NCBI GenBank assembly: GCA_965204055.1
Contig: OZ241967.1
Coordinates: forward strand, 1,801,362-1,865,361
Length of the DNA stretch: 64,000 nt
Reading direction: 5' to 3'
Source of the DNA: Bdellovibrionales bacterium
GTDB lineage: Bacteria; Bdellovibrionota; Bdellovibrionia; Bdellovibrionales; UBA1609
Positions 22,474 to 35,743 of this stretch are shown piece after piece; the stretch's first letter is position 1; every line of letters starts with the position of its first letter. The position numbers and the translations under genes were made by a program. The notes below the pieces were generated by a model that did no database searches, was not told the origin of the DNA, and saw nothing but the letters and a program-made list of their open reading frames with translations.

Positions 22474-22574
22474 TTGACCCTATTCAATAACTATTGTAAC
22501 CTGTTTAGGAACCGCCCCTGCTTATTCGGGCAGGGCGCAAGGCTGTGGCTTACGGCTACAGCCTTTGCTTTTTT
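22474..22574 (+). promoter_or_regulatory. sigma70-like promoter + GC-rich double-hairpin leader + U-tract before NYN gene 2
   Basis: TTGACC-17-TAACCT (22474-22502); hairpins cgcccctgc/gcagggcg and gcaaggctgtggc/gctacagcctttgc, then T6. Confidence 0.65.
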
Positions 22575-22586
22575 ATCAGGTGTCTC

Positions 22587-23210
22587 TTGAAAACGATTGT
22601 TTACATAGATGGATTTAATCTTTATTATGGATGTTTAAAAGGCTCCTCTTATAAATGGCTCAATTTATTGAAGTTATCCAAACTTTTATTACCAAAGCAC
22701 AATATTTCAAAGATCAAGTATTTTACCGCTAAAGTGTCGCCTCAGCCCTATGATCCGGATTGCCATAAAAGACAATACACCTATATACGCGCTCTGAAAT
22801 CTCTGGAATGTTGCGAGATTCATTATGGATTTTACCTGTCAAACATTAAAAAAGTGCCACTTGCGCAACCCATCGCCGGAAAAAAATTTACAGACATTAT
22901 TCATACTGAGGAAAAAGGCTCTGATGTGAATTTAGCCTCTCACTTATTATTGGATGCCTTTAGAGACAGATATGAAACAGCTGTAGTAATTTCAAATGAT
23001 TCAGATTTTGCCTCAACAGTTCAAATAGTGAGAGATGAATTGAAAAAAAATATAGGGATCATTTCCCCTTATAAAAGGCCGGCAAGAGCTTTGCAAAACA
23101 AAGCGACTTTTTATAAAAAAATCAGGACAGGCGTTCTTCAAGCTACCCAATTTCCGGCGATTATCACTCTTGCCAATGGAGAAACCATACACAAACCGTC
23201 TGATTGGTAA
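22587..23210 (+). CDS. NYN-domain ribonuclease 2
   Basis: VYIDGFNLYYG, EEKGSDVNLA, VISNDSDF; TTG start at 22587 with aggt RBS (the track start 22545 lies in the hairpin). Confidence 0.9.
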   Translation: MKTIVYIDGFNLYYGCLKGSSYKWLNLLKLSKLLLPKHNISKIKYFTAKVSPQPYDPDCHKRQYTYIRALKSLECCEIHYGFYLSNIKKVPLAQPIAGKKFTDIIHTEEKGSDVNLASHLLLDAFRDRYETAVVISNDSDFASTVQIVRDELKKNIGIISPYKRPARALQNKATFYKKIRTGVLQATQFPAIITLANGETIHKPSDW

Positions 23211-23686: not shown

Positions 23687-24589
23687 ATGCCCAGCTGGAA
23701 CACAATTTTAAAAGAGATCCAAAGCGATCCAAATATAGATCCTTTTCGTAATGTAAGGCAAAAATATATTCAAAAACTGTTTGAAAAGCGTCAGAGAAAT
23801 ATCATTGTCTATTACTCTGGTTGGCTTCAAAAACCAGGTATAAGAGGGACAGAAATTAATGATAACGATAAAAATGCTTTTATGGCGGTTATTCATGGTT
23901 TAAGTCGCGATAAAGGATTAGACTTGATACTTCACACCCCAGGAGGTGAAGTTGCCGCAACAGAATCTTTGATTGATTATTTAAGAAAAATGTTTGACTC
24001 CAATATAGAGGTGTTTGTTCCTCAGATTGCTATGTCAGCAGGAACAGTGGTTGCCTGTGCTTCAAGACTTATACACATGGGAAAACAATCCAACTTAGGG
24101 CCGATTGATCCTCAAATCGGAGGACTGCCGGCTGGTGCCATACTGGACGAATTTGAACAAGCCGCAAGAGAAATTAAAAAACAACCAGAAAAAATTCCAT
24201 TATGGCAGGCTATTGTTAGTAAATATCACCCCAGTCTTATACTGTCTTGTGAAAACGCTATTAAATGGTCAAAAGAAATAGCAGAAAAATATTTAAAAAC
24301 AGGGATGTTTTCTAATGATAAAGAGGTAAATATCAAGCAAATAGTGAGTAAACTTTCAGATTATAAGCAAATGAAGACCCATTTTCGACATATCGGACTT
24401 CGTGAAGCGCAAGATATTGGGTTAAAAATTAGTCAGCTTGAAGATGATGATGATCTTCAAGATATAGTTCTTACCATTCATCATACTTATATACATACGC
24501 TCAACAGCACTCTTGCCATTAAAATTATAGAGAATCAAAAAGGCATTGGGCAGATACAAAGTTTGCCACTCCGGCCAAACACTAATTAA
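23687..24589 (+). CDS. ClpP-class serine protease (SDH_sah/S49-like)
   Basis: LILHTPGG, AMSAGT, LGPIDPQ, THFRHI. Confidence 0.85.
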   Translation: MPSWNTILKEIQSDPNIDPFRNVRQKYIQKLFEKRQRNIIVYYSGWLQKPGIRGTEINDNDKNAFMAVIHGLSRDKGLDLILHTPGGEVAATESLIDYLRKMFDSNIEVFVPQIAMSAGTVVACASRLIHMGKQSNLGPIDPQIGGLPAGAILDEFEQAAREIKKQPEKIPLWQAIVSKYHPSLILSCENAIKWSKEIAEKYLKTGMFSNDKEVNIKQIVSKLSDYKQMKTHFRHIGLREAQDIGLKISQLEDDDDLQDIVLTIHHTYIHTLNSTLAIKIIENQKGIGQIQSLPLRPNTN

Positions 24590-24631: not shown

Positions 24632-27274
24632 TTAAGGTTTTCTTTTCTCTAAGGACAAAATTCTTTTTTCTCCTTCTTTTATATATTCTGTGTGTTTGTC
24701 CCATAGAGGAATTGGAAGATTTTTTATATCGAAATTATTTTCTTCAATATATTGTTTGTATTTTTTAGATAAAAATAACCCTATAATATACAGAAAAACC
24801 TCCTGTTGAGAATGAAATCGTGTTGTTTTATTCTTCAACAATAGATGACATTTTATATTGATATTTTTTGCTGAAACAAATCTTGTTCCTGAACCTCCCG
24901 GTTTAAAATAATCTTTGGAAATAGGTTTATTTATTAAATCCACCTCAAATCTCCTTTTTCTCATACACCAACAAAGAGCTAAGTTATTATTCTTTAAATT
25001 TTCTCCCCATACTTCAAAGTGGTTTTGTGTTAACCTGTCTGACAAAATTTTTTCTGAATAAAAATATTTATTTTCATCTTTTCTGTAGCCGACTAAGCAT
25101 ATTTTTTCTTTATCAAATTTTAAACTCGCTGTTGCTTCGTTTTTGATTTTCTTTTTTAAGTCGAGGGAAAGTTTAATTTTTGGATTATCAGGATTTTTCT
25201 TTAAATCCTTTATCAAAAACTTTATTCTTTTCTTTAGTGCCTCTTTATTGGAGTCATAAACATCTTTGTCCCTGTTAGTCACAATTCCAAGAAAAGATTT
25301 TTCAAAAAGATCATTAATAGACAATCCTTCAAAAGGTGTTTCTTGGTTCAACCATTGATATCTTTTATTAGGAGTGATTACTTTAAATGGATATTGGTTT
25401 GGATTTTTATAGTTTGCTAAAAAAGTTTTTTTCTTTCCATTGTTTTCTTGATCAATAAAAGAATTATTTAGTGCTGTTAATTTATAAGATTTTTTATCTC
25501 CTTCCAGATGTTCTGATAATTTTATATACTTAATTTTTGCTTTTTTTTCAGTTCCTGACTTAACCAGAAAAACAATGGAAACCCCGGCTTGAATATCAAA
25601 TACATTGGAATCCTGCGGGTCTCCTGTTCTTATATTGCCCCCTAGATCTAAAATATAAATATGATCAAATTCTTGCTCTAAACAGTGTCTTACCCCTTTG
25701 CCACTGTCTGCATCCAAAAAAGATCGATTTACCACAAAAGATATAATACCTTGATTTTGTATTCTGTCTGTCGCCCATCTCAAAAAATAGATATATTTGT
25801 CTTGTGATAGTTTTTCTTTTTTTGACTTAATATGCCCATAAGTTTCCTTGATTCTTTGTTTCAGCTCAGGGTAATTTTTATTTGGATTGCCATCATCAAA
25901 TCTTTTCTGGTGCTGGTTGTATGGAGGATTCCCTAAAACTATCTGAATGTCTTTTTCATTTTGCTTTTTAACTCTTTTTTGATTCTCTGAAAAAGCATAA
26001 CCCTGAAAACTCATTTGACCTTTTAAAATACCAGAATTTTGCAGACTGTCCATAAGAACAAGGTTTGGAAAATGCTCATTATTGTTTGTCAATTTCTCAT
26101 AAGTGTATTCAATACTTAAATTCGCTACATAGTAAGGCAAAACAGAAATTTCATTGGCATGGATTTCATTCATATACTTATATTTGAGTGTCCGTTTGTC
26201 TGACTGATGGTAAATATATTCAATAAGTTCTGTGACAAAAGTTCCTGTTCCCGTCGCCGGATCCAGTATATGAACATTTTTATCTTTCAACTCTTTGTTA
26301 AAATGCTTTTTTAAAACCTGATTTGTGGATTGAACTATAAACTTAACAATCTCATTTGGTGTATATATAATACCCAGTCTGTCCGCTACTTTTTGATTGT
26401 AGGAATTATAAAAATCCTGATATATATTTTTAAGAAACAGTTGTCGCTCATTTAGGTCAATTATATTGGATCCATAGCTTGTTATAGGAGCCATATATGG
26501 CTTGATTTTTCTTAGTATTGCTCTCTTTTTTGCTCCAAGAAATTTCTTCTCTATGTCACTTATAGCGGCTGATATGTTGTTGGTTTTGTGATACTGTTGC
26601 TCATCAAAGACTTTTAAAAAAAATTGCTCTGTCAAAATATGTTGAATAAGCCAATCTTCTACATTCTCTCTTTTAAAATAAGGGTTAATAAACTTCTGAC
26701 ATTCTGAAACAAGATCATTAGTTTTTTTTATATATTCTTGATTTTCATTCATTTTCACTAACTCTTGTCTGATCTCTTTTGCAAGTGCCGGTAAGTTTTT
26801 ATTAAATTGTTTTTGAGCACTATAAAAACTTCTTTTCTCAGGAGATTCATAATTGAAAAATAGAGCTAAAAGCTCACTTAAAGGTTCTGGATTATCCCAC
26901 ATTCCTGATATTTCTTTTACAGGACGCTTGTCTTGATAAAGAATACAAGAATCTGAATTTTCAAAAATGGTGTTTTTTATCGGATAATTGTTGTTAATTT
27001 TTGTATTTATCGCTTTTTTTAAGTTTGTGGCAGGAGATTTAGCTTCATAATATCCATGAACTGTATAAAGATTTTTTATTGTAGCATCCGGTTTTTTGTT
27101 GTTGTTCAGTCTATCCTCAGCAATGACCCATAGGTTTTTATGAGATCCCGCTCTATTCAAAAGCTCTATAAAAACAGGTCTTAACGATTCTTCCGTGTTA
27201 TTGCTACTGCGTATTCGTCGTATTCTGGGCTTTAAATCAGAAATGTATTGGCTGATAATTTGTGTATTAAACAT
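24632..27274 (-). CDS. Type IIG/ISP-like single-chain restriction-modification enzyme (N6-adenine MTase)
   Basis: N-terminal KPD...YYEAK nuclease motif, ILDPATGTGTF, VLGNPPY, C-terminal TRD-like region. Confidence 0.85.
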   Translation of the reverse strand: MFNTQIISQYISDLKPRIRRIRSSNNTEESLRPVFIELLNRAGSHKNLWVIAEDRLNNNKKPDATIKNLYTVHGYYEAKSPATNLKKAINTKINNNYPIKNTIFENSDSCILYQDKRPVKEISGMWDNPEPLSELLALFFNYESPEKRSFYSAQKQFNKNLPALAKEIRQELVKMNENQEYIKKTNDLVSECQKFINPYFKRENVEDWLIQHILTEQFFLKVFDEQQYHKTNNISAAISDIEKKFLGAKKRAILRKIKPYMAPITSYGSNIIDLNERQLFLKNIYQDFYNSYNQKVADRLGIIYTPNEIVKFIVQSTNQVLKKHFNKELKDKNVHILDPATGTGTFVTELIEYIYHQSDKRTLKYKYMNEIHANEISVLPYYVANLSIEYTYEKLTNNNEHFPNLVLMDSLQNSGILKGQMSFQGYAFSENQKRVKKQNEKDIQIVLGNPPYNQHQKRFDDGNPNKNYPELKQRIKETYGHIKSKKEKLSQDKYIYFLRWATDRIQNQGIISFVVNRSFLDADSGKGVRHCLEQEFDHIYILDLGGNIRTGDPQDSNVFDIQAGVSIVFLVKSGTEKKAKIKYIKLSEHLEGDKKSYKLTALNNSFIDQENNGKKKTFLANYKNPNQYPFKVITPNKRYQWLNQETPFEGLSINDLFEKSFLGIVTNRDKDVYDSNKEALKKRIKFLIKDLKKNPDNPKIKLSLDLKKKIKNEATASLKFDKEKICLVGYRKDENKYFYSEKILSDRLTQNHFEVWGENLKNNNLALCWCMRKRRFEVDLINKPISKDYFKPGGSGTRFVSAKNINIKCHLLLKNKTTRFHSQQEVFLYIIGLFLSKKYKQYIEENNFDIKNLPIPLWDKHTEYIKEGEKRILSLEKRKP

Positions 27275-27672: not shown

Positions 27673-28806
27673 TCAAAATATTGTTTCTCCTTTTTCAACA
27701 GAATCAACCAATTCTTTTAATTTCCTACAATCTTCTTTTAAGTATTCTTTAAAAAAGTCAATACTTTTAGAAGAGTTAATTTCAATTTTATCTGGGCTAA
27801 CCTTTGTTAAACTGACTATTTCATTCATAGATTTAGACCTCTGAAACTGCTCAATTCTTTTTATAAAAACCTTCTTTTCTTTTTTATCTGGATCAACAAT
27901 AAGCATTTTCTTATTCAAATCAGAACTTAAATTTTGTATTAAAATATTGTTAATATATCTATCTTGAAAACTATATCCAACTGCGATAAATAAATTTGTT
28001 TTTTTTAAAGCTTCACTAAAAGCCCCTAAAAGTGATAAAAAAGGATCGTAAGATTGGATTTTTGAGCCAGAACCAAAAATAATTAAAGGCTTCTGGTTAA
28101 CTCTTCCTTGTTTAATTGTTTCCTCTTCATCATCAAAATACCAGTCAATAGAACCATGAAGTTTATAAAATTTTATTTTTTGAGGACTTTCCGGATCATT
28201 AAAGTCACCGATCCACTTGTTTTGAGAAAATCCAGTATCTACAAGATGCTCATTTTCTGTGTTAAAGGTTTTTTCAAGTATTATATCGTAATTAAGTGAG
28301 AATATTCGCAAATCAAATTTCTCATCAGACTGAATGAGTTTTTGAAATGGATTTAAAAGACATTGAGCTTTTTTATTATCGAATTTAGTCCATTTATTTA
28401 TAAGCTGATCATGTATAAAGTTATAAAAATCTTGAAAAACATTTTTGTCTTTAGACTCCCACAGAGTGATTTTATTATTCCAATTTCCTACTAAAGGAGG
28501 AGGAACAACATATTCTCTATCTATTATTTGTTGCAATACTAACACAAAATCCTCAATATTTGTCACTTCAGACACTTTTATTTCTGTATCTTTTAAACCA
28601 TATTGATATAGAAGGCTTTGCATAATAAAATTGTATATGTCAAGAAAATGGTTCTTGTTTGGCCAAGGAATTTCATAATCAAGTATAGATTTTTTTAGAT
28701 CGCACAACATTTCCTTCGATAAAAAACACCCGGCGTCTTTTGAAGACCCGGCACCAAAAAGAAACACTGTCTTTTCAAATAAACTTTTTAAACTCATAAA
28801 AACCAC
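27673..28806 (-). CDS. SIR2-like (SIR2_2) putative NADase, Argonaute-associated
   Basis: FLFGAGSS, FSLNYD, KLHGSIDW, AVGYSFQDRYIN; start overlaps the pAgo stop. Confidence 0.9.
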   Translation of the reverse strand: MVFMSLKSLFEKTVFLFGAGSSKDAGCFLSKEMLCDLKKSILDYEIPWPNKNHFLDIYNFIMQSLLYQYGLKDTEIKVSEVTNIEDFVLVLQQIIDREYVVPPPLVGNWNNKITLWESKDKNVFQDFYNFIHDQLINKWTKFDNKKAQCLLNPFQKLIQSDEKFDLRIFSLNYDIILEKTFNTENEHLVDTGFSQNKWIGDFNDPESPQKIKFYKLHGSIDWYFDDEEETIKQGRVNQKPLIIFGSGSKIQSYDPFLSLLGAFSEALKKTNLFIAVGYSFQDRYINNILIQNLSSDLNKKMLIVDPDKKEKKVFIKRIEQFQRSKSMNEIVSLTKVSPDKIEINSSKSIDFFKEYLKEDCRKLKELVDSVEKGETIF

Positions 28807-30827
28807 AATGTTTGTTTTGCTGTATTTGAATCAGGCAATTTGCTGTCACTAAAAGATGGTGTCATTTTGGCTATCTTTTCAGAGTATAAAACTGTTACAG
28901 GTTTCCCTTTTTGTTTTACACTAACCCAATACATTCTTGAAAATTGATAAATCTGATCTATAAGTAGTTTAATATCTCCTCTTAAAAGCTTTTCTTGACT
29001 CATTTTTGATATTTTTATTTGAATTGGAAAAGGGAAATCTCTAATTTTTGCTCCGGTTGTATTGGAATATCTCTCATTATTACACAAAAGATACTGCCTT
29101 TTATTATTAAGGATAACACAAGTTCCACTGACTGGCATTTTTCCATTATAAGAAGTATCAAATGGAATGTAATCCTTGTTTTCCGTAATATGTAAAACAA
29201 TATAAGGGATTTTAAGATTTAATTGACTTAGAGTTTCTTCTATTATTTTACTCTCTTTTTTATTCATTGTTTTGTAATAATGGATAATGATTCTTTTAAA
29301 ATTATTTATATCCTCTTTTGATATGCTCAATATGATCTTTTTAAGAAATTCTGAAACTTCATCAATAGAATTTGTTTTTGAGGAATCGAAGTGAACAAAA
29401 GTACCATCGTTTTTAAATGTCATGGTTGTGCCAATGTAAGTATTCTGGCTTGTGTTAAATGCTCCTACACCGATAATTAAATCATTTTCTATAGGGCGAC
29501 TTAATCTCCAAGGTATACCTCCCAGCTTGGCTAAAATAGCAACTCCAATATTTGGCAAAGAGTAATTAAAGTTTTGTTCGATTATATTACCTCTATAAAT
29601 AACTTGAGAAGTGATATTTTTTTTTAAAAATAACTCCTTCAATTTATAATAGATTCCTACCTTATTAGGATCAAGATCATCTTTTTTGATTCTGGAAATA
29701 TAAATCCCCAGATATTTTATATTTGAATCAAAACTTAACGATTCTAACTTCTGTTTAATTTCTGATAAAGGATTTTCCTCTCTAAATTTGATTGTTTTTT
29801 CCTTATCAATATCTATATTTAATTCAACAAATCGAGAAAGACCAGGAAAGCCTTTAATGCCTCTTGTAAAGTAAGCATATAGTTTATTTGCAATATCTTT
29901 GTCATCCTCGTGAAATATAAAAAAGAACCTATACTGCCCTTGTTCAACAGGCCGATATGGACCATACTCTTTAATTCCATAATAAGGGCTAAAATAAGTT
30001 CTGTTCTTACCAAATATTAATAAGTTAGAATCTTTTTTTGCGTATATTATTTGCTCATTACTAATTGTCTGAAAGCCCGATGTAAAAATGGATATTTTTT
30101 TATTGTCATTTATACTAATATCCTGATCTTTAATATATTTCTCATAGAAATCAGAAACTTCATTATAAAACTGAGAGTATTTATTCGGTGGTTTAGAGAA
30201 CTGCTTTAGCCAATTCATTTGTATCCGAAATTTATTACTTACATACGCTTTTGTTTTATCAGATTTTTTTTCTTCTGTAGTCAACCTATCCAAAGGCTTA
30301 ACGGTTTTTCCCACGAGAGCGTTTTTGATAAATCTATGATAATTTTCATAAGAACTTAGAGATTTTTTTGTGATTTCACTTTTCCCCATATAGGAAATAC
30401 TGAGATTCCAAGAGTTCTGCTTATTACAAGCATATTGTTGTTTGGGATGGATAATACGGACTGTAAATTTTTTATATATTATTAAATCAGGTATATTGGA
30501 CTGGTTTTGTTCTTCAAGCAAAATAAGCTCATCTATAAAATCATTATAAACAATTAGCCTTTTTTCTAAAAAATAATCGCGAAAGGATTTTTTTAAAATA
30601 TTTTTAACGACTTTAAAATTCTCTTTATCAATTTCTATTGGTATTGAACCATCAAACTCTTCCAGATCCCAACACACTTTCTTATTAGAATCTTTAAACT
30701 TATCAGGGTCAAGTAGTTTTTTTGGAATAGTGTTATGGCCTTCTTGAGTATCTTCTGAGTAATAAATTTTTACTTTCTCAAAAGATAATTCAAAAGGTAT
30801 TAGGTTAATTGTTAAATTCAGATTCAT
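28794..30827 (-). CDS. Prokaryotic Argonaute, long-B type (catalytically inactive)
   Basis: 677 aa; MID YYKLK...TSQVI...LAKLGGIPW; PIWI DLIIGVG (G at the catalytic D), RIIIHYY, FSRMYW..V...KPVTVLYSEKIA. Confidence 0.9.
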   Translation of the reverse strand: MNLNLTINLIPFELSFEKVKIYYSEDTQEGHNTIPKKLLDPDKFKDSNKKVCWDLEEFDGSIPIEIDKENFKVVKNILKKSFRDYFLEKRLIVYNDFIDELILLEEQNQSNIPDLIIYKKFTVRIIHPKQQYACNKQNSWNLSISYMGKSEITKKSLSSYENYHRFIKNALVGKTVKPLDRLTTEEKKSDKTKAYVSNKFRIQMNWLKQFSKPPNKYSQFYNEVSDFYEKYIKDQDISINDNKKISIFTSGFQTISNEQIIYAKKDSNLLIFGKNRTYFSPYYGIKEYGPYRPVEQGQYRFFFIFHEDDKDIANKLYAYFTRGIKGFPGLSRFVELNIDIDKEKTIKFREENPLSEIKQKLESLSFDSNIKYLGIYISRIKKDDLDPNKVGIYYKLKELFLKKNITSQVIYRGNIIEQNFNYSLPNIGVAILAKLGGIPWRLSRPIENDLIIGVGAFNTSQNTYIGTTMTFKNDGTFVHFDSSKTNSIDEVSEFLKKIILSISKEDINNFKRIIIHYYKTMNKKESKIIEETLSQLNLKIPYIVLHITENKDYIPFDTSYNGKMPVSGTCVILNNKRQYLLCNNERYSNTTGAKIRDFPFPIQIKISKMSQEKLLRGDIKLLIDQIYQFSRMYWVSVKQKGKPVTVLYSEKIAKMTPSFSDSKLPDSNTAKQTLWFL

Positions 30828-30860
30828 AGTTTTGTCTCTTTATTTTCTATTTTAATTTTT

Positions 30861-33506
30861 TTATTGGCTTGTTCTAAAAATGTTGTTTAAAGCCTTCCGC
30901 CACTCATCTTGTAGAATGAGATCAAAAGTCATTTTCTGATCTTGGATTTCAATGGTTCCGGCGTCTATGGATTTTTGAGAGTATTCCGTAAAAAGATCAA
31001 AGAGCTTTTTCTTGTATTTCGTGTCAGGATTCCCCATAAGGTGTTGCCCCTTTGTCTCCAAAATGGAAAAAGAGGCATTGCCGTTTTTAGATGACTTAAC
31101 ACAAATCAAAAAATCAGGATATATCTTGTGTTTTTGCCAGCCCTGTAAATACCAGTCCTGTCTCTCTATGATCCTGTGCCACCACTTAATGGCTGAATCC
31201 TCGTCTAAATACCAAGCCACCCTTTTTTCCAGATCATTGAACTTAAATTCGTTCTTGTAAATATCCTCAAAAAGAGATAGTTGCAAATCTCCGTTACTTT
31301 TTCTTCTCAATAATGTATCCTCCCCTGATACAGAGAGATTTAAAGTTTTCGCCATTTCCCAATTCAAATCCGAATCTCCCGCGCTTACAAGCTTAAATAT
31401 AATCTCATTGTTTTTTAGTTTCTTTCTGAAAATCTTTTCTGTTTTTTGGCTTATTTGACTTTGAAGATCATTTCTTAAACAATCCAGAATATAAAACCGA
31501 TTAGAATAAATTTTTTCCTTCCCGTGCTTTCTCTTTAAAGAGGCCAGAGCTTTATCCACTGTGACGCTTATATTCCAAGGGTTGGGAATAATATCGGAAA
31601 GCCTTTGGCATATAAAGCCAAAATCCTTATTATAATCTTCAGAAACTTTTTCCTCTTCGTTTTCACAAAACGAGTGGATCAATTTCATTTGCTCTTTTAT
31701 ATCAACCTGTGTATGAGATATATCAGGGGGGTTTTCATACAGGGTAAAATCCCTCCTCAATCTTAAGTTTTGCCAGTCAATGGGAAAAAGCAGATCTTCC
31801 TCATAACTCAGTTCTTTAAAGTTTTTTCTGTCCCTATGAAGAACTTTAGGTAAAAATATCTTTAAGCCCCTAAACGGCTTTCTTCTTTTTATATTGACTT
31901 GCCGGATAGTTTCTTTCCCTGAACCCAAGGCTTTTATTTCTCCCGCCAAACCATCCATTCCCTCGTTTTCCAACCCCTTTCGGATTCCCTCTACGGCTTG
32001 GTTTGTGTCCTGATCCATACAAACTATGTATGACTGATTTAAAGCCTCTATGCCGGTTTGCCTTGTTTCCGGCTGTCTTAAAACCCGCCCTATCATTTGC
32101 TCAATGGCCACAGGGGCCTTTGTCTTGGATAGAATTGTCAGGATATAAGCAAAGGGACAATCCCAGCCTTCCTTTAAAGCCTCCTTGGTGATTATATATC
32201 GAACTCTGGAATATTCAGAGAGCAAATCTTCATCTTTCAGCTCATCTTGGAAAGCAGACTTAACCCTGATTTCCAATGGATTCACATTAAAGTTTTTTAT
32301 AAGATATTCCCGAACATCCTCCGCGTGAATGAACTTTTTTTCCCTCTGATCTTTCCCCGTTCTTTCAACTCTTATCAGCTGGACAGGGCGAATATAGCGA
32401 CTCTCGATTGTCTGTAATTTTTCCGCAGATTTTGAAAGGCTTTGCAAGGTTTCGTAACCTTTAGCCAGAGCTTTTTTCCAGTCTTTGCTTTTTAAATTAT
32501 AAATATTAATGGGGAGCTTTATCATCTCCTCTTTTTTCAACTCTCCGCCGGATACAGACACCAAAACATTGCTCTCATGAGATTTTTTATTAGGAGTAGC
32601 GGAAAGCTCTAAAATAAACCGGGGGTTAAAATCCATTAAGGCGTTCTTGGCTTTTTCCGTATAAGCCCTGTGGCCTTCATCAATCACAATCAAAGGCTGA
32701 ACAAGTTTTAAGACATTTCCAAGACTCTGCTTTATGGATATATTTTTTGAACCGGGAAATAAAGGCTCTCCAATGTCGAGGTTAGGACATATATCAAGCA
32801 GTTTTTGATTTTCATAATGAGCATTGATTTCCGGGAAGAAATAAGGAAATTTCCCAGAATTTCTGAATATCCTTAAGGTTTCTTTTGACTGTCTTCCGGC
32901 GGATTGAAGCATCAACAACATCACACATAAAAAATTTTCTGTGTCTTGAGGATGAAAGCTGTCGGTTTTTTGAAGGATTTTAACTTTTCCGGCTGAGGCA
33001 CGATCCAAGGTTTGCCTGTAAAGGCTTTCTCGATTAGTAAGAGCTTTCAGGGTTTGTTTATAAATAGAATCACTTGGAACTACCCACAAAACAAAACCGG
33101 TATTCCTCTCAAAAAAACGAGTATTGATTCGCTCTATTCCTGCCGTCGCAAGTAGTGTTTTGCCACCACCTGTGGGAACTTTAAAGCATATATTGGGAAC
33201 AGGGCGACCCATGCCACTGAATCGGCTTTTATAGGACGCAAGCGTTTGCTCTTGGTTTTTAGAGATAAACAGTCTCTCTTTTTTATCGATGACTCTTCTG
33301 GAAATAAGAGGCAAAAGCCTTTGTTCGTTTAATTCATCCCAAGCTCTTTTGCAAAAGTTAAAATCTCCTGAAGTCCAGGATGCAGACCGTTTTCTGCTTT
33401 TTCGTGATTCCGCCAAAATTAAAGTATCCTGTCTTTTTTCCTTAAGAACCTTAAGGAAAACGGAAAGCCTGTCAAGGACAGCTGACTGATAGTCTTTTAG
33501 TTCCAT
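30861..33506 (-). CDS. res: Type III restriction endonuclease subunit Res
   Basis: PTGGGKT, DEGH, ALKEGWDCP, QMIGRVLR, C-terminal YPDF...ILETKG. Confidence 0.9.
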   Translation of the reverse strand: MELKDYQSAVLDRLSVFLKVLKEKRQDTLILAESRKSRKRSASWTSGDFNFCKRAWDELNEQRLLPLISRRVIDKKERLFISKNQEQTLASYKSRFSGMGRPVPNICFKVPTGGGKTLLATAGIERINTRFFERNTGFVLWVVPSDSIYKQTLKALTNRESLYRQTLDRASAGKVKILQKTDSFHPQDTENFLCVMLLMLQSAGRQSKETLRIFRNSGKFPYFFPEINAHYENQKLLDICPNLDIGEPLFPGSKNISIKQSLGNVLKLVQPLIVIDEGHRAYTEKAKNALMDFNPRFILELSATPNKKSHESNVLVSVSGGELKKEEMIKLPINIYNLKSKDWKKALAKGYETLQSLSKSAEKLQTIESRYIRPVQLIRVERTGKDQREKKFIHAEDVREYLIKNFNVNPLEIRVKSAFQDELKDEDLLSEYSRVRYIITKEALKEGWDCPFAYILTILSKTKAPVAIEQMIGRVLRQPETRQTGIEALNQSYIVCMDQDTNQAVEGIRKGLENEGMDGLAGEIKALGSGKETIRQVNIKRRKPFRGLKIFLPKVLHRDRKNFKELSYEEDLLFPIDWQNLRLRRDFTLYENPPDISHTQVDIKEQMKLIHSFCENEEEKVSEDYNKDFGFICQRLSDIIPNPWNISVTVDKALASLKRKHGKEKIYSNRFYILDCLRNDLQSQISQKTEKIFRKKLKNNEIIFKLVSAGDSDLNWEMAKTLNLSVSGEDTLLRRKSNGDLQLSLFEDIYKNEFKFNDLEKRVAWYLDEDSAIKWWHRIIERQDWYLQGWQKHKIYPDFLICVKSSKNGNASFSILETKGQHLMGNPDTKYKKKLFDLFTEYSQKSIDAGTIEIQDQKMTFDLILQDEWRKALNNIFRTSQ

Positions 33507-33566
33507 TCAAAGCTCCTGATTTTTTTAAAAATCCCAACAGAAGGAAAATAGCTGTTTTTTCACTTA

Positions 33567-35285
33567 TCAAACTCCCATAATTTTGTGAATATGAAAAGGA
33601 AGTTGGCAAAAGTGAATGCCATATTTTTTCTTAAGGTTTTTTTGATTGATATAGCTTGCCGGAGCAAACACCAAACTGATCTTGTTTGATTTTTTATTGA
33701 TTTTTTTTATTGTCTCTGCAAGATCCAAGTGCAGGGCGCATTCTTTTCCGTTCAGAAAATCCAAGTCAGGCTTATACACAAGATGAAAATTATAATTTTC
33801 CGTCTCACCAACCAACCAAGCCGGATTAGCTTTTGGAATAGTGTCCAGGTTTCGTCCCGTTGCTGTATAAAAAACATATCTGGCCAGCTGTTTGTAGTCC
33901 GGGAGATCTTTTCCTCTCAGCATATTTTCAATATTGATTTCCTCTCCCAAAGAGCAATAAGTGAAGGAACCGCCTAAGCCTTTCTTTAGTTTTTCATCCT
34001 TGGATTTTGGAACACCCTTAATTACACGACGAACCCGCTCCGCAGTGATTTTATCCGCGTAATCCTCACACTCAATAAGGATGAACTTGCGATGGCCTCC
34101 GTCCTCTTTGTTTAAGTCAAGAACCGCTTGAGCTGTTGTGCCCGAACCAGCAAAAGAGTCCAAGATAATAGAGTTTTTATCATTGTAGGTAACCGCCTGT
34201 ACAAGTTGTTTAATAAGACCGCTTGGTTTAGGATTTGTAAAAATCTGTTTGCTGAAAATGTTTATCATTTCTTTTGTTGCATCTTCATTTGTAGGGGTTT
34301 TATAATGGTTAAGAAAAGATAAAAGATTTTTCATTTTTTTTATTTCTCCGCCCTTTCTAATATGATTGGGCCGGAAAGGTATTTTACTTATGCTGATTTT
34401 AGCTCCTTCCAAAAGATATGAATCCAGTGTCTTTTGAGAATAGCCCCATTCCCCTTTAAGGCGAAACTCAGAGAGATTTGTTCCGTTTTTTATAATCAGT
34501 TTGTCCATAAGATGTGTCTTTATTTCCCCTTCTGACATATCCTGAGCCTCTATTTTTTGATCCTCACACAAAAACTGAACCGAACCTTTTGGAAATTTCA
34601 ACACAGATTCTTTATTTCCTGCCCGGTTAAGAGGATATTTCTTGCCTTCTGTTGTTTTCTCCAAAGAAAAGGGAAAAGAATATTCCTTATTTTTCAAATA
34701 ACAAACAATAAAATCAGTAACCACTCCAACATTTTTATGTAAAAAAGAGGGCTTTTTCTTTTTCTCCCATATAAACTGAGTAACATAATTTTCTTCTCCA
34801 AAAATTTCCTCCATAATGGCCATAAGCCGAAACTGCTCATTTTCATCAATGCTGACAAAGATCACCCCGTCATCGGAAAGTAGTTCTTTTAATAATTGCA
34901 ACCGTGGCCACATCATGCAGAGCCACTTGTCATGTCTTTCTAAGTCATCGGTCCCGATGCCGTTTTGTTTCAGCCATTCCTTTATTATGGGGCTGTTCAC
35001 TTTATCGTTATATTTCCAACCCTCGTTTCCAGTGTTATAGGGCGGATCAATGTAAATACATTTGATTTTCCCCGAATACCTGGGCAAAAGAGCTTTCAGG
35101 GCGTGAAGATTATCTCCATGAATAATTAAATTGTCATCCAAGTTGGGTGCGCGCCTTTTCTTGCCAGGCACTTCTCGTCCAGTGGGAGGGAGAGATTTTT
35201 TTGCAGACACTTTAAGCACTCGAAAAGGAACTCCTAAATGATGTGAATAGATGACAGATTTTCCCTTAAAATCCAAAAAAGGCAT
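33567..35285 (-). CDS. mod: Type III DNA methyltransferase Mod
   Basis: GDNLHALK, IYIDPPY, DSFAGSGTT. Confidence 0.92.
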   Translation of the reverse strand: MPFLDFKGKSVIYSHHLGVPFRVLKVSAKKSLPPTGREVPGKKRRAPNLDDNLIIHGDNLHALKALLPRYSGKIKCIYIDPPYNTGNEGWKYNDKVNSPIIKEWLKQNGIGTDDLERHDKWLCMMWPRLQLLKELLSDDGVIFVSIDENEQFRLMAIMEEIFGEENYVTQFIWEKKKKPSFLHKNVGVVTDFIVCYLKNKEYSFPFSLEKTTEGKKYPLNRAGNKESVLKFPKGSVQFLCEDQKIEAQDMSEGEIKTHLMDKLIIKNGTNLSEFRLKGEWGYSQKTLDSYLLEGAKISISKIPFRPNHIRKGGEIKKMKNLLSFLNHYKTPTNEDATKEMINIFSKQIFTNPKPSGLIKQLVQAVTYNDKNSIILDSFAGSGTTAQAVLDLNKEDGGHRKFILIECEDYADKITAERVRRVIKGVPKSKDEKLKKGLGGSFTYCSLGEEINIENMLRGKDLPDYKQLARYVFYTATGRNLDTIPKANPAWLVGETENYNFHLVYKPDLDFLNGKECALHLDLAETIKKINKKSNKISLVFAPASYINQKNLKKKYGIHFCQLPFHIHKIMGV

Positions 35286-35743
35286 ATTTCCCCTCTTAGG
35301 TTTATTGTCTCATTAAAATATGTTTCCTGTAAGTCCAAGGATTAGTGTTTATATCCAGTGTAAATTTCATAAATCAGCAAGAAAAGTTGCTCCTTCTAAG
35401 GCTTTCAAAAGATTCCAATAGGCCAAGGTAGAAAGAGGCTTATTAGGAAAATCGCACCTTTTTCCCAACCTCAATTTAACAACAAAACAGCTTATAAAGG
35501 CAAGCGCAAACTTCTGTTCCTGCTTTGTCTAAAGCCCCTTTCCAGCTCCTTAGAAAATAATACAATGCGTTAATTAAGTTTCTGTATCCAATCTGTTGGA
35601 GGTGGTTAATCAAGACTATAGACTTGGCACTTTTCCGGTAAGGCAGTTTTCAACTACAAGAGATGTGACATACTTTGTAACACATACTGATTTTTTAATC
35701 TTGACAACAAAATCCTACAAAGAATATAAATAAAGCCATACAA

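Follow-up and report, generated by a model that had tools for sequence, protein, structure and literature searches.

Does an Argonaute-gated suicide cassette that directly follows a restriction-modification (RM) system work together with that system, or do the two only travel together? The question is raised by a locus in a 64,000-nucleotide stretch of a Bdellovibrionales bacterium (contig OZ241967.1 of assembly GCA_965204055.1, positions 1,801,362 to 1,865,361), hereafter the window, in whose numbering features are given unless otherwise indicated. Here a type III methyltransferase gene (mod, 33567-35285, 572 aa), a type III restriction subunit gene (res, 30861-33506, 881 aa), a gene for a prokaryotic Argonaute (pAgo; ago, 28794-30827, 677 aa) and a gene for a SIR2 protein (sir2, from 27673) follow one another, all co-oriented on the minus strand. 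An earlier note on this DNA had described them as one apparent operon with gaps of 60, 33 and -13 nt; the gaps between mod and res (60 nt) and between res and ago (33 nt) stand, while the third depends on the start codon of sir2. We favor, with a probability of roughly 70%, a modular reading in which a self-sufficient mod-res pair and an autonomous pAgo-SIR2 cassette of the BPAS type form separate immunity layers that travel together and are possibly co-transcribed.

The pAgo is predicted to be a full-length, long-B-type Argonaute with an inactive PIWI domain. It has no Pfam match, but the PADLOC pAgo profile covers it end to end (1e-165). When it was placed relative to long-A pAgos, long-B pAgos and the short ones by profile ranking against the PDB, the long-B clade came far ahead, with AfAgo (1.5e-32), EcAgo (4.7e-28) and RsAgo (1e-20) ranking above the long-A AaAgo (3e-9), a short pAgo (5e-8) and CbAgo (7e-4). 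AlphaFold2, supplied with 45 homologues, returned a confident model (pLDDT 87, pTM 0.82) for which RsAgo was the top Foldseek match over the whole chain (TM 0.67-0.70), with the truncated AfAgo matching the C-terminal half only, and the structural alignments to solved long-B pAgos showed 13-22% sequence identity. The whole-chain superposition on RsAgo marks the protein as a long, though compact, pAgo with approximately 300 residues before the MID domain. In the family alignment of the 45 sequences, two positions of the PIWI catalytic aspartates are occupied by an invariant glycine (G455, ..IIGVGAF..) and a nearly invariant tyrosine (Y518, ..IIHYYK..); these D1 and D3 positions were placed by motif, the top PDB alignments all being to inactive long-B members with no active Argonaute aligned. 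The 5'-phosphate-binding pocket of the MID domain, Y393/K397/Q408/K434 (YKQK), is invariant in the same alignment. The view that this Argonaute is full length and lacks the catalytic aspartates was thus sustained.

The partner gene encodes a predicted NADase effector of the bAgaS type. The protein matches Pfam SIR2_2 (5e-13) and PADLOC Aga_SIR2 (7e-69), whereas the SIR2-APAZ model reaches only a marginal E-value of 0.004 over the first ~50 residues, in agreement with its earlier description as a standalone SIR2 without APAZ. The Rossmann GAG motif (residues 18-20), N172 (LNYD) and H217 (KLHGS) show no variation across 11 homologues, all of which follow a pAgo, and N172 was equated by motif with N155 of GbAgaS and N112 of ThsA. 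With regard to the start of the gene, an ATG at 28797 (~374 aa) creates a 4-nt ATGA overlap with the TGA of ago; the gap of -13 nt arises only if the upstream GTG at 28806 is used (377 aa). The ATG is probably the true start. In our survey, which drew on pAgo homologues at 80 genomic loci and on 37 metagenomic loci retrieved with the SIR2 sequence, the order pAgo then SIR2 occurred in 12 genome loci and in ~30 metagenome loci, and the identities of the two proteins to those of the window co-varied across loci (78/79%, 49/58%, 45/53%, down to ~39/44% for pAgo/SIR2; Spearman 0.72).

This architecture is that of BPAS, defined by Song et al. 2023 (Nat Commun 14:6970, PMC10620215) as a long-B pAgo followed by the SIR2_2 protein bAgaS. 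In GbBPAS, from an unclassified gammaproteobacterium, GbAgo and GbAgaS co-purify as a complex, and bAgaS, which is toxic alone, is neutralized by the pAgo (PMC10620215). NAD+ is depleted and cells are killed only in the presence of an invader plasmid, an effect that is abolished by mutation of the asparagine, and the system is active by itself when expressed in E. coli (PMC10620215). The sister system BPAN recognizes target DNA under RNA guidance (PMC10620215). By every sequence-level criterion, the pAgo-SIR2 pair of the window is a member of BPAS, which agrees with the assignment made in the earlier note, where the pairing had been called a known one.

The other half of the locus has the features of a type III RM system, in which a beta-class N6/N4 methyltransferase, Mod, is encoded upstream of a Res subunit combining a superfamily 2 helicase with a PD-(D/E)xK nuclease. 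Residues 74-410 of Mod match Pfam N6_N4_Mtase (2e-35) around a long insert; Mod also matches PADLOC MTase_III (4e-164), and its translation contains a DPPY motif before an FAGSG motif. Res matches Pfam ResIII (7e-17), DEAD and, over residues 1-871 of 881, PADLOC REase_III (6e-253); a C-terminal PD-(D/E)xK-like motif, YPDF...ILETKG, was spotted by eye in the translation. No simple-sequence repeats of the phase-variable kind were found in mod. The central target-recognition region of Mod shares only 13-47% DNA identity with its paralogues, which implies that the paralogues have different specificities. Mod-res pairs appear to be self-sufficient in the absence of a pAgo, as the genome carries two further copies and eight congeners carry copies, all without pAgo. 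Upstream of mod lies a putative leader and promoter region of ~316 nt (35286-35601, minus strand) in which no open reading frame (ORF) of at least 80 aa was found. It shares 75% identity with the sequence that precedes one paralogous mod (C1:752263-752545) and matches nowhere else in the genome, and it may be the regulatory region of the RM unit. Parts of this leader are also common to the copies in the genome that carries locus L001 (motif ..acgcattgtattattttct..ctttagacaaa..), a Bdellovibrionales metagenome-assembled genome from another genus of the same family.

The two halves differ in composition. GC content and GC at third codon positions are 0.38/0.37 in mod and 0.39/0.39 in res, whereas they are 0.28/0.23 in ago and 0.28/0.22 in sir2, which bears out the earlier remark that the last two genes are more AT-rich. 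The composition switches exactly at the boundary between res and ago, and it does likewise in L001. The junction is crossed, with no mismatch, by independent short-read contigs from two runs and also by a ~97%-identical strain in the metagenome of another study; misassembly as the origin of the GC break was ruled out by the spanning contigs and by L001. In run X2, a single low-depth contig joins 30861 to 33683, linking the end of mod straight to the res stop region as a res-less variant would, but at 2.9x against ~35x and with a 23-nt anchor it is too weak to be trusted. BPAS cassettes lie below their flanks in GC at all 14 other loci checked. The compositional break therefore points to a travelling module and not necessarily to a recent arrival.

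The junction itself is tight. Within the 33-nt A-rich spacer (30828-30860, minus strand), neither a terminator-like site nor a stable fold (z 0.27) was found, and the only promoter-like match nearby is a weak one, TTTAGA-18-TAAAAT at 30878-30849, in the 3' end of res. In L001, the spacer is longer (83-95 nt, according to which start codon is used) and contains TATAAT. With so short a spacer and no terminator in it, transcription starting at the mod-res promoter is likely to read through, and co-transcription of res and ago is plausible.

The history of the genes in the host family indicates how the cassette came to lie behind res. A pAgo is present in only one of the 15 genomes of the genus and in two of the 109 genomes of the family, whereas Res occurs in three copies in the 2.31-Mb host genome (80% identical), in two copies in the L001 genome and in one to four copies in eight of 14 congeners, every copy with different flanks. 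Between the host and L001 genomes, the isoleucyl-tRNA synthetase IleRS is only 53% identical, while Res reaches 74-80%, Ago 78% and SIR2 79%; the far greater divergence of IleRS argues that the RM family and the cassette have been exchanged horizontally within the bacterial family. The ago-linked Res proteins of the window and of L001 are not sisters, as the L001 Res groups with a host paralogue that is not linked to ago (G000b; support 98/99), and the trees of Res and Mod disagree. Over its last ~370 nt, res in the window (30861-31230) is 99-100% identical to this paralogue (C1:754254-756902), from which the gene otherwise differs (~80%), and a second high-identity tract lies in the middle of res. 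These tracts point to gene conversion among the three type III systems. The Res tree was considered as a test of joint inheritance of the four genes, but it is not decisive, owing to the conversion tracts in this mosaic gene.

The position directly behind res is variable. In 18 other res copies it holds varied genes, an ago relic or convergent genes. In one congener (L093, G010:C1, res 1105984-1108569), the Shedu gene SduA (2e-91) follows res on the same strand after 28 nt; in another (L142, G001:C1, res 530395-533001), an HD/dGTPase-like gene does so after 27 nt. Proteins of 267 aa and 234 aa without recognized function follow in G012 and G006, with gaps of 0 and -1, and behind other copies lies a gene for a pentapeptide-transmembrane protein or for a hydrolase, a fragment of a transposase or a convergent gene. 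The 267-aa and 234-aa proteins are possible new defence candidates.

The ago relic comprises 109 frameshifted nucleotides corresponding to codons 1-35, with ~68% nucleotide identity, and it lies outside the window at C1 ~839281-839386 on the minus strand, beginning 4 nt past the stop codon of the paralogous res G000c (C1:839397-842045). Its alignment score of 39 compares with maxima of 19-22 in controls consisting of 2000 shuffles and 3000 random genomic segments. No further ago or sir2 relics were found at E<1 behind 17 other res copies. The relic is what remains of an earlier mod-res-ago array from which the cassette has been lost. Taken together, the window, L001 and the relic indicate that the junction between res and ago has existed at least three times in the family and was lost at least once.

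The relic and the absence of a pAgo from 107 of the 109 family genomes could be taken to mean that ago and sir2 in the window are themselves decaying or silent cargo heading for loss, as happened behind the paralogous res. We regard this as highly improbable, as both ORFs are intact, the YKQK pocket and the SIR2 residues GAG, N172 and H217 are all kept, the translational-coupling overlap ATGA is preserved, and the second, ~97%-identical strain retains the genes.

The conversion tracts invite a different explanation, namely pure hitch-hiking: the conserved, multi-copy res would serve as a homology arm through which DNA of relatives, with res and whatever trails it, is captured by homologous recombination or by illegitimate recombination that homology facilitates, the adjacency would be without meaning for expression or fitness, and ago-sir2 would be driven by a promoter of its own. 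The high-identity tracts between res paralogues do stop near the res stop codon, the incongruent Res and Mod trees and the variable cargo behind res fit such a process, and promoter-like sequences are present in the L001 spacer and, weakly, at the junction in the window. The 33-nt and 4-nt spacers, however, leave scant room for a separate promoter outside the coding sequence of res, and all three junctions are co-oriented. This explanation largely overlaps with the modular one and differs from it on co-transcription alone; we judge it improbable.

The remaining alternative is that the adjacency is maintained by selection because the two systems form a two-layer circuit, in which Res, a translocating helicase-nuclease, would cut invader DNA, and the ends, or the single strands resected from them, would activate pAgo-SIR2 either as accessible DNA targets or by giving rise to its guides. 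The genomic footprint of such a circuit would consist of the three res-ago junctions in one bacterial family, with their tight, terminator-free spacers of 33 nt in the window and 4 nt at the relic, and of a bias in gene order in the wider pAgo clade. When every locus with 8 kb or more of flank was counted, type I or type III RM genes were co-oriented upstream of the pAgo in 32 of 63 and downstream in one of 60 (Fisher p 7e-11), and several unrelated Res and HsdR lineages contribute to this bias. The presence of Shedu in the same position behind res in a congener fits as well, since Shedu has been reported to sense DNA ends.

Within BPAS, on the other hand, the association is rare. The earlier note had singled out a tight coupling to type III RM, and this is only weakly borne out: the order in L001 and the relic speak for it, while Shedu and other genes occupy the same position elsewhere, and a count of how often homologues follow mod-res found, among BPAS-type loci, L001 alone. 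At the other 19 BPAS loci, no type III RM gene was found among the three genes upstream of ago. Instead, type I RM was present in three (once on the opposite strand) and N6_N4 methyltransferases in two near-identical loci, the remaining upstream genes including relaxase/RadC, KilA-N, peptidase and carboxylase genes. For the BPAS clade as a whole, RM genes were upstream in seven of 21 loci and downstream in three of 18, which is not a significant difference (p 0.29).

The bias in the wider clade comes mostly from Bacteroidota. The more distant pAgo homologues there (33-41% identical; L012-L080) lack SIR2 and are conserved cargo of integrative elements whose co-oriented backbone genes encode an integrase, HTH_17, a protein of the BT4734/VirE-N kind, a primase (DUF3987) and a helix-turn-helix (HTH) protein. 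Between this backbone and ago lie, interchangeably, type III RM genes (their Res subunits from three or more unrelated lineages), type I RM genes, RhuM, or an M78-HTH gene with a PIN gene, and after ago follow FUR, DUF6660 and RND efflux genes or GmrSD. The asymmetry therefore arises mostly in elements in which all genes point the same way and cargo is inserted between the primase/HTH backbone and ago, and the upstream RM bias is largely a property of this architecture. As a separate observation, a 303-aa DUF5655/HSDR_N_2 protein occupies position -1 in five of the Bacteroidota loci and might be an unrecognized pAgo partner.

The genomic context is also of a known kind. Type III genes near pAgos were already tabulated by Ryazansky et al. 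2018 (mBio 9:e01935-18), who listed a type III REase, a SAM-MTase, HsdS and RND efflux genes in same-strand pAgo 'operons', and all of these neighbor types were recovered again among the loci surveyed here.

Two biochemical properties of the relatives count against the circuit in addition to the GC break, which indicates separate origins: BPAS functions alone in E. coli, and the characterized long-B relative is RNA-guided (PMC10620215). As characterized long-B pAgos use RNA guides, the earlier suggestion that DNA fragments produced by Res serve as Argonaute guides is unlikely to hold; that Res supplies accessible DNA targets to the pAgo is conceivable. On balance, we consider the two-layer circuit unlikely. 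Its more general form, in which long-B pAgos would be retained behind type I and type III RM systems because restriction products license target binding, so that the cell cuts, senses the debris and then commits suicide, appears quite unlikely. An obligate functional coupling of BPAS to type III RM is likewise unlikely, judging from the sequences compared.

We therefore return to the modular reading, in which mod-res and BPAS are separate layers. It rests on the multi-copy, recombining nature of mod-res, the variable position behind res, the absence of type III RM from the 19 other BPAS loci and the GC break, all of which suggest that the BPAS cassette is foreign, low-GC cargo in a variable slot. 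Some observations weigh against it. The recurrence of at least three junctions is greater than a purely random slot predicts, the 32 of 63 against one of 60 bias is strong in the wider clade, and the read-through from res to ago that would permit co-expression is something we infer.

By analogy with the characterized relatives, the locus would operate as follows. Mod would methylate its own sites, and Res would cut invader DNA that is unmodified. Independently, the pAgo, loaded with 5'-phosphorylated small RNA guides, would keep SIR2 restrained until it binds complementary invader DNA, such as a multicopy plasmid or a phage, which would free the NADase activity of SIR2. NAD+ would then drop, and the infected cell would stop growing or die. 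The two layers may be co-expressed and co-transferred, and neither would need the other. Restriction of unmodified DNA would come first, followed by Argonaute-gated NAD+ depletion for invaders that escape it, which corresponds to the earlier idea of a suicide back-up.

The locus is part of a defence island of ~12 kb, flanked by ileS and lspA on one side and by tRNA-Ala and a small NYN islet on the other, and no recombinase or integrase was found in the island or nearby. Beyond sir2, a 398-nt gap is followed by a gene for an MmeI-like type IIG restriction-methyltransferase (24632-27274, minus strand, 880 aa), a separate unit of the same island, and then by a ClpP-like SDH protease. The type IIG enzyme is a single chain composed of an N-terminal PD..EAK motif, a coupler, an N6 methyltransferase and a Type_ISP_C target recognition domain (PADLOC REase_MTase_IIG, 3e-133; Pfam ISP_coupler, N6_Mtase, Eco57I and Type_ISP_C), and its gene has a GC content of ~0.30, low as in ago and sir2. 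L001 lacks this gene and has a 269-aa N6_N4 methyltransferase after sir2. Terminal repeats, miniature inverted-repeat transposable elements (MITEs) or a recombinase bounding a mobile mod-res-ago-sir2 element were not found; the 398 nt downstream of sir2 are unique, and the 316 nt upstream of mod match one paralogue only. Further along the island, the ClpP-like SDH-type serine protease (23687-24589, plus strand) has no PADLOC match, and the NYN-domain protein beside tRNA-Ala (22545-23210, plus strand) matches the PADLOC candidate HEC-09 (4e-46).

The locus adds a divergent member to BPAS, from a small-genome Bdellovibrionales-like bacterium, and offers a clean natural example of the way in which Argonaute suicide cassettes spread, namely as cargo that is exchanged behind an RM pair which is itself mobile and recombining. 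New details that can be checked are the ago relic and the changing occupancy of the slot behind res. If restriction products did feed Argonaute sensing, this would explain the old finding that RM genes crowd the neighborhoods of pAgos, and the locus would then be a directly testable instance in which innate cutting and abortive infection are wired to cooperate, its four genes being small enough for cloning and trial in E. coli.

Among known arrangements, the systems described by Payne et al. 2024 (bioRxiv 10.1101/2024.01.29.577857), in which multi-gene defence operons (Hma, BREX, DISARM and type I RM were analysed) carry embedded or appended defence genes, resemble the window in that a second defence system is co-oriented with an RM unit and rides on it. 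Unlike the embedded cargo, the cassette of the window follows the last RM gene, res, and is not nested between genes. SPARSA, which combines a short pAgo with SIR2-APAZ (e.g., GsSir2/Ago), would share with the window Argonaute-gated NAD+ depletion by a SIR2 domain and abortive infection. In contrast to SPARSA, the pAgo of the window comes first and has a folded N-terminal lobe that aligns to RsAgo, and its SIR2 is of the SIR2_2/ThsA-like kind without APAZ; the N-terminal lobe and the marginal SIR2-APAZ match ruled out a SPARSA identity. RsAgo, the BPAN Argonaute EcAgo and AfAgo are the best matches in sequence and structure, and they share the dead PIWI domain and the 5'-phosphate-binding MID pocket. 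The partner of EcAgo, however, is a nuclease, whereas that of the window is a SIR2 protein. AfAgo pairs with a separate N-domain protein. BPAS is matched in its two-gene organization, with an inactive long pAgo upstream of a ~375-aa SIR2_2 protein that lacks APAZ and keeps the NADase asparagine and histidine. The window departs from BPAS in that its pAgo is only 38-49% identical to the BPAS pAgos found outside its bacterial family, is short for a long pAgo at 677 aa, and lies just 33 nt past the end of a type III res.

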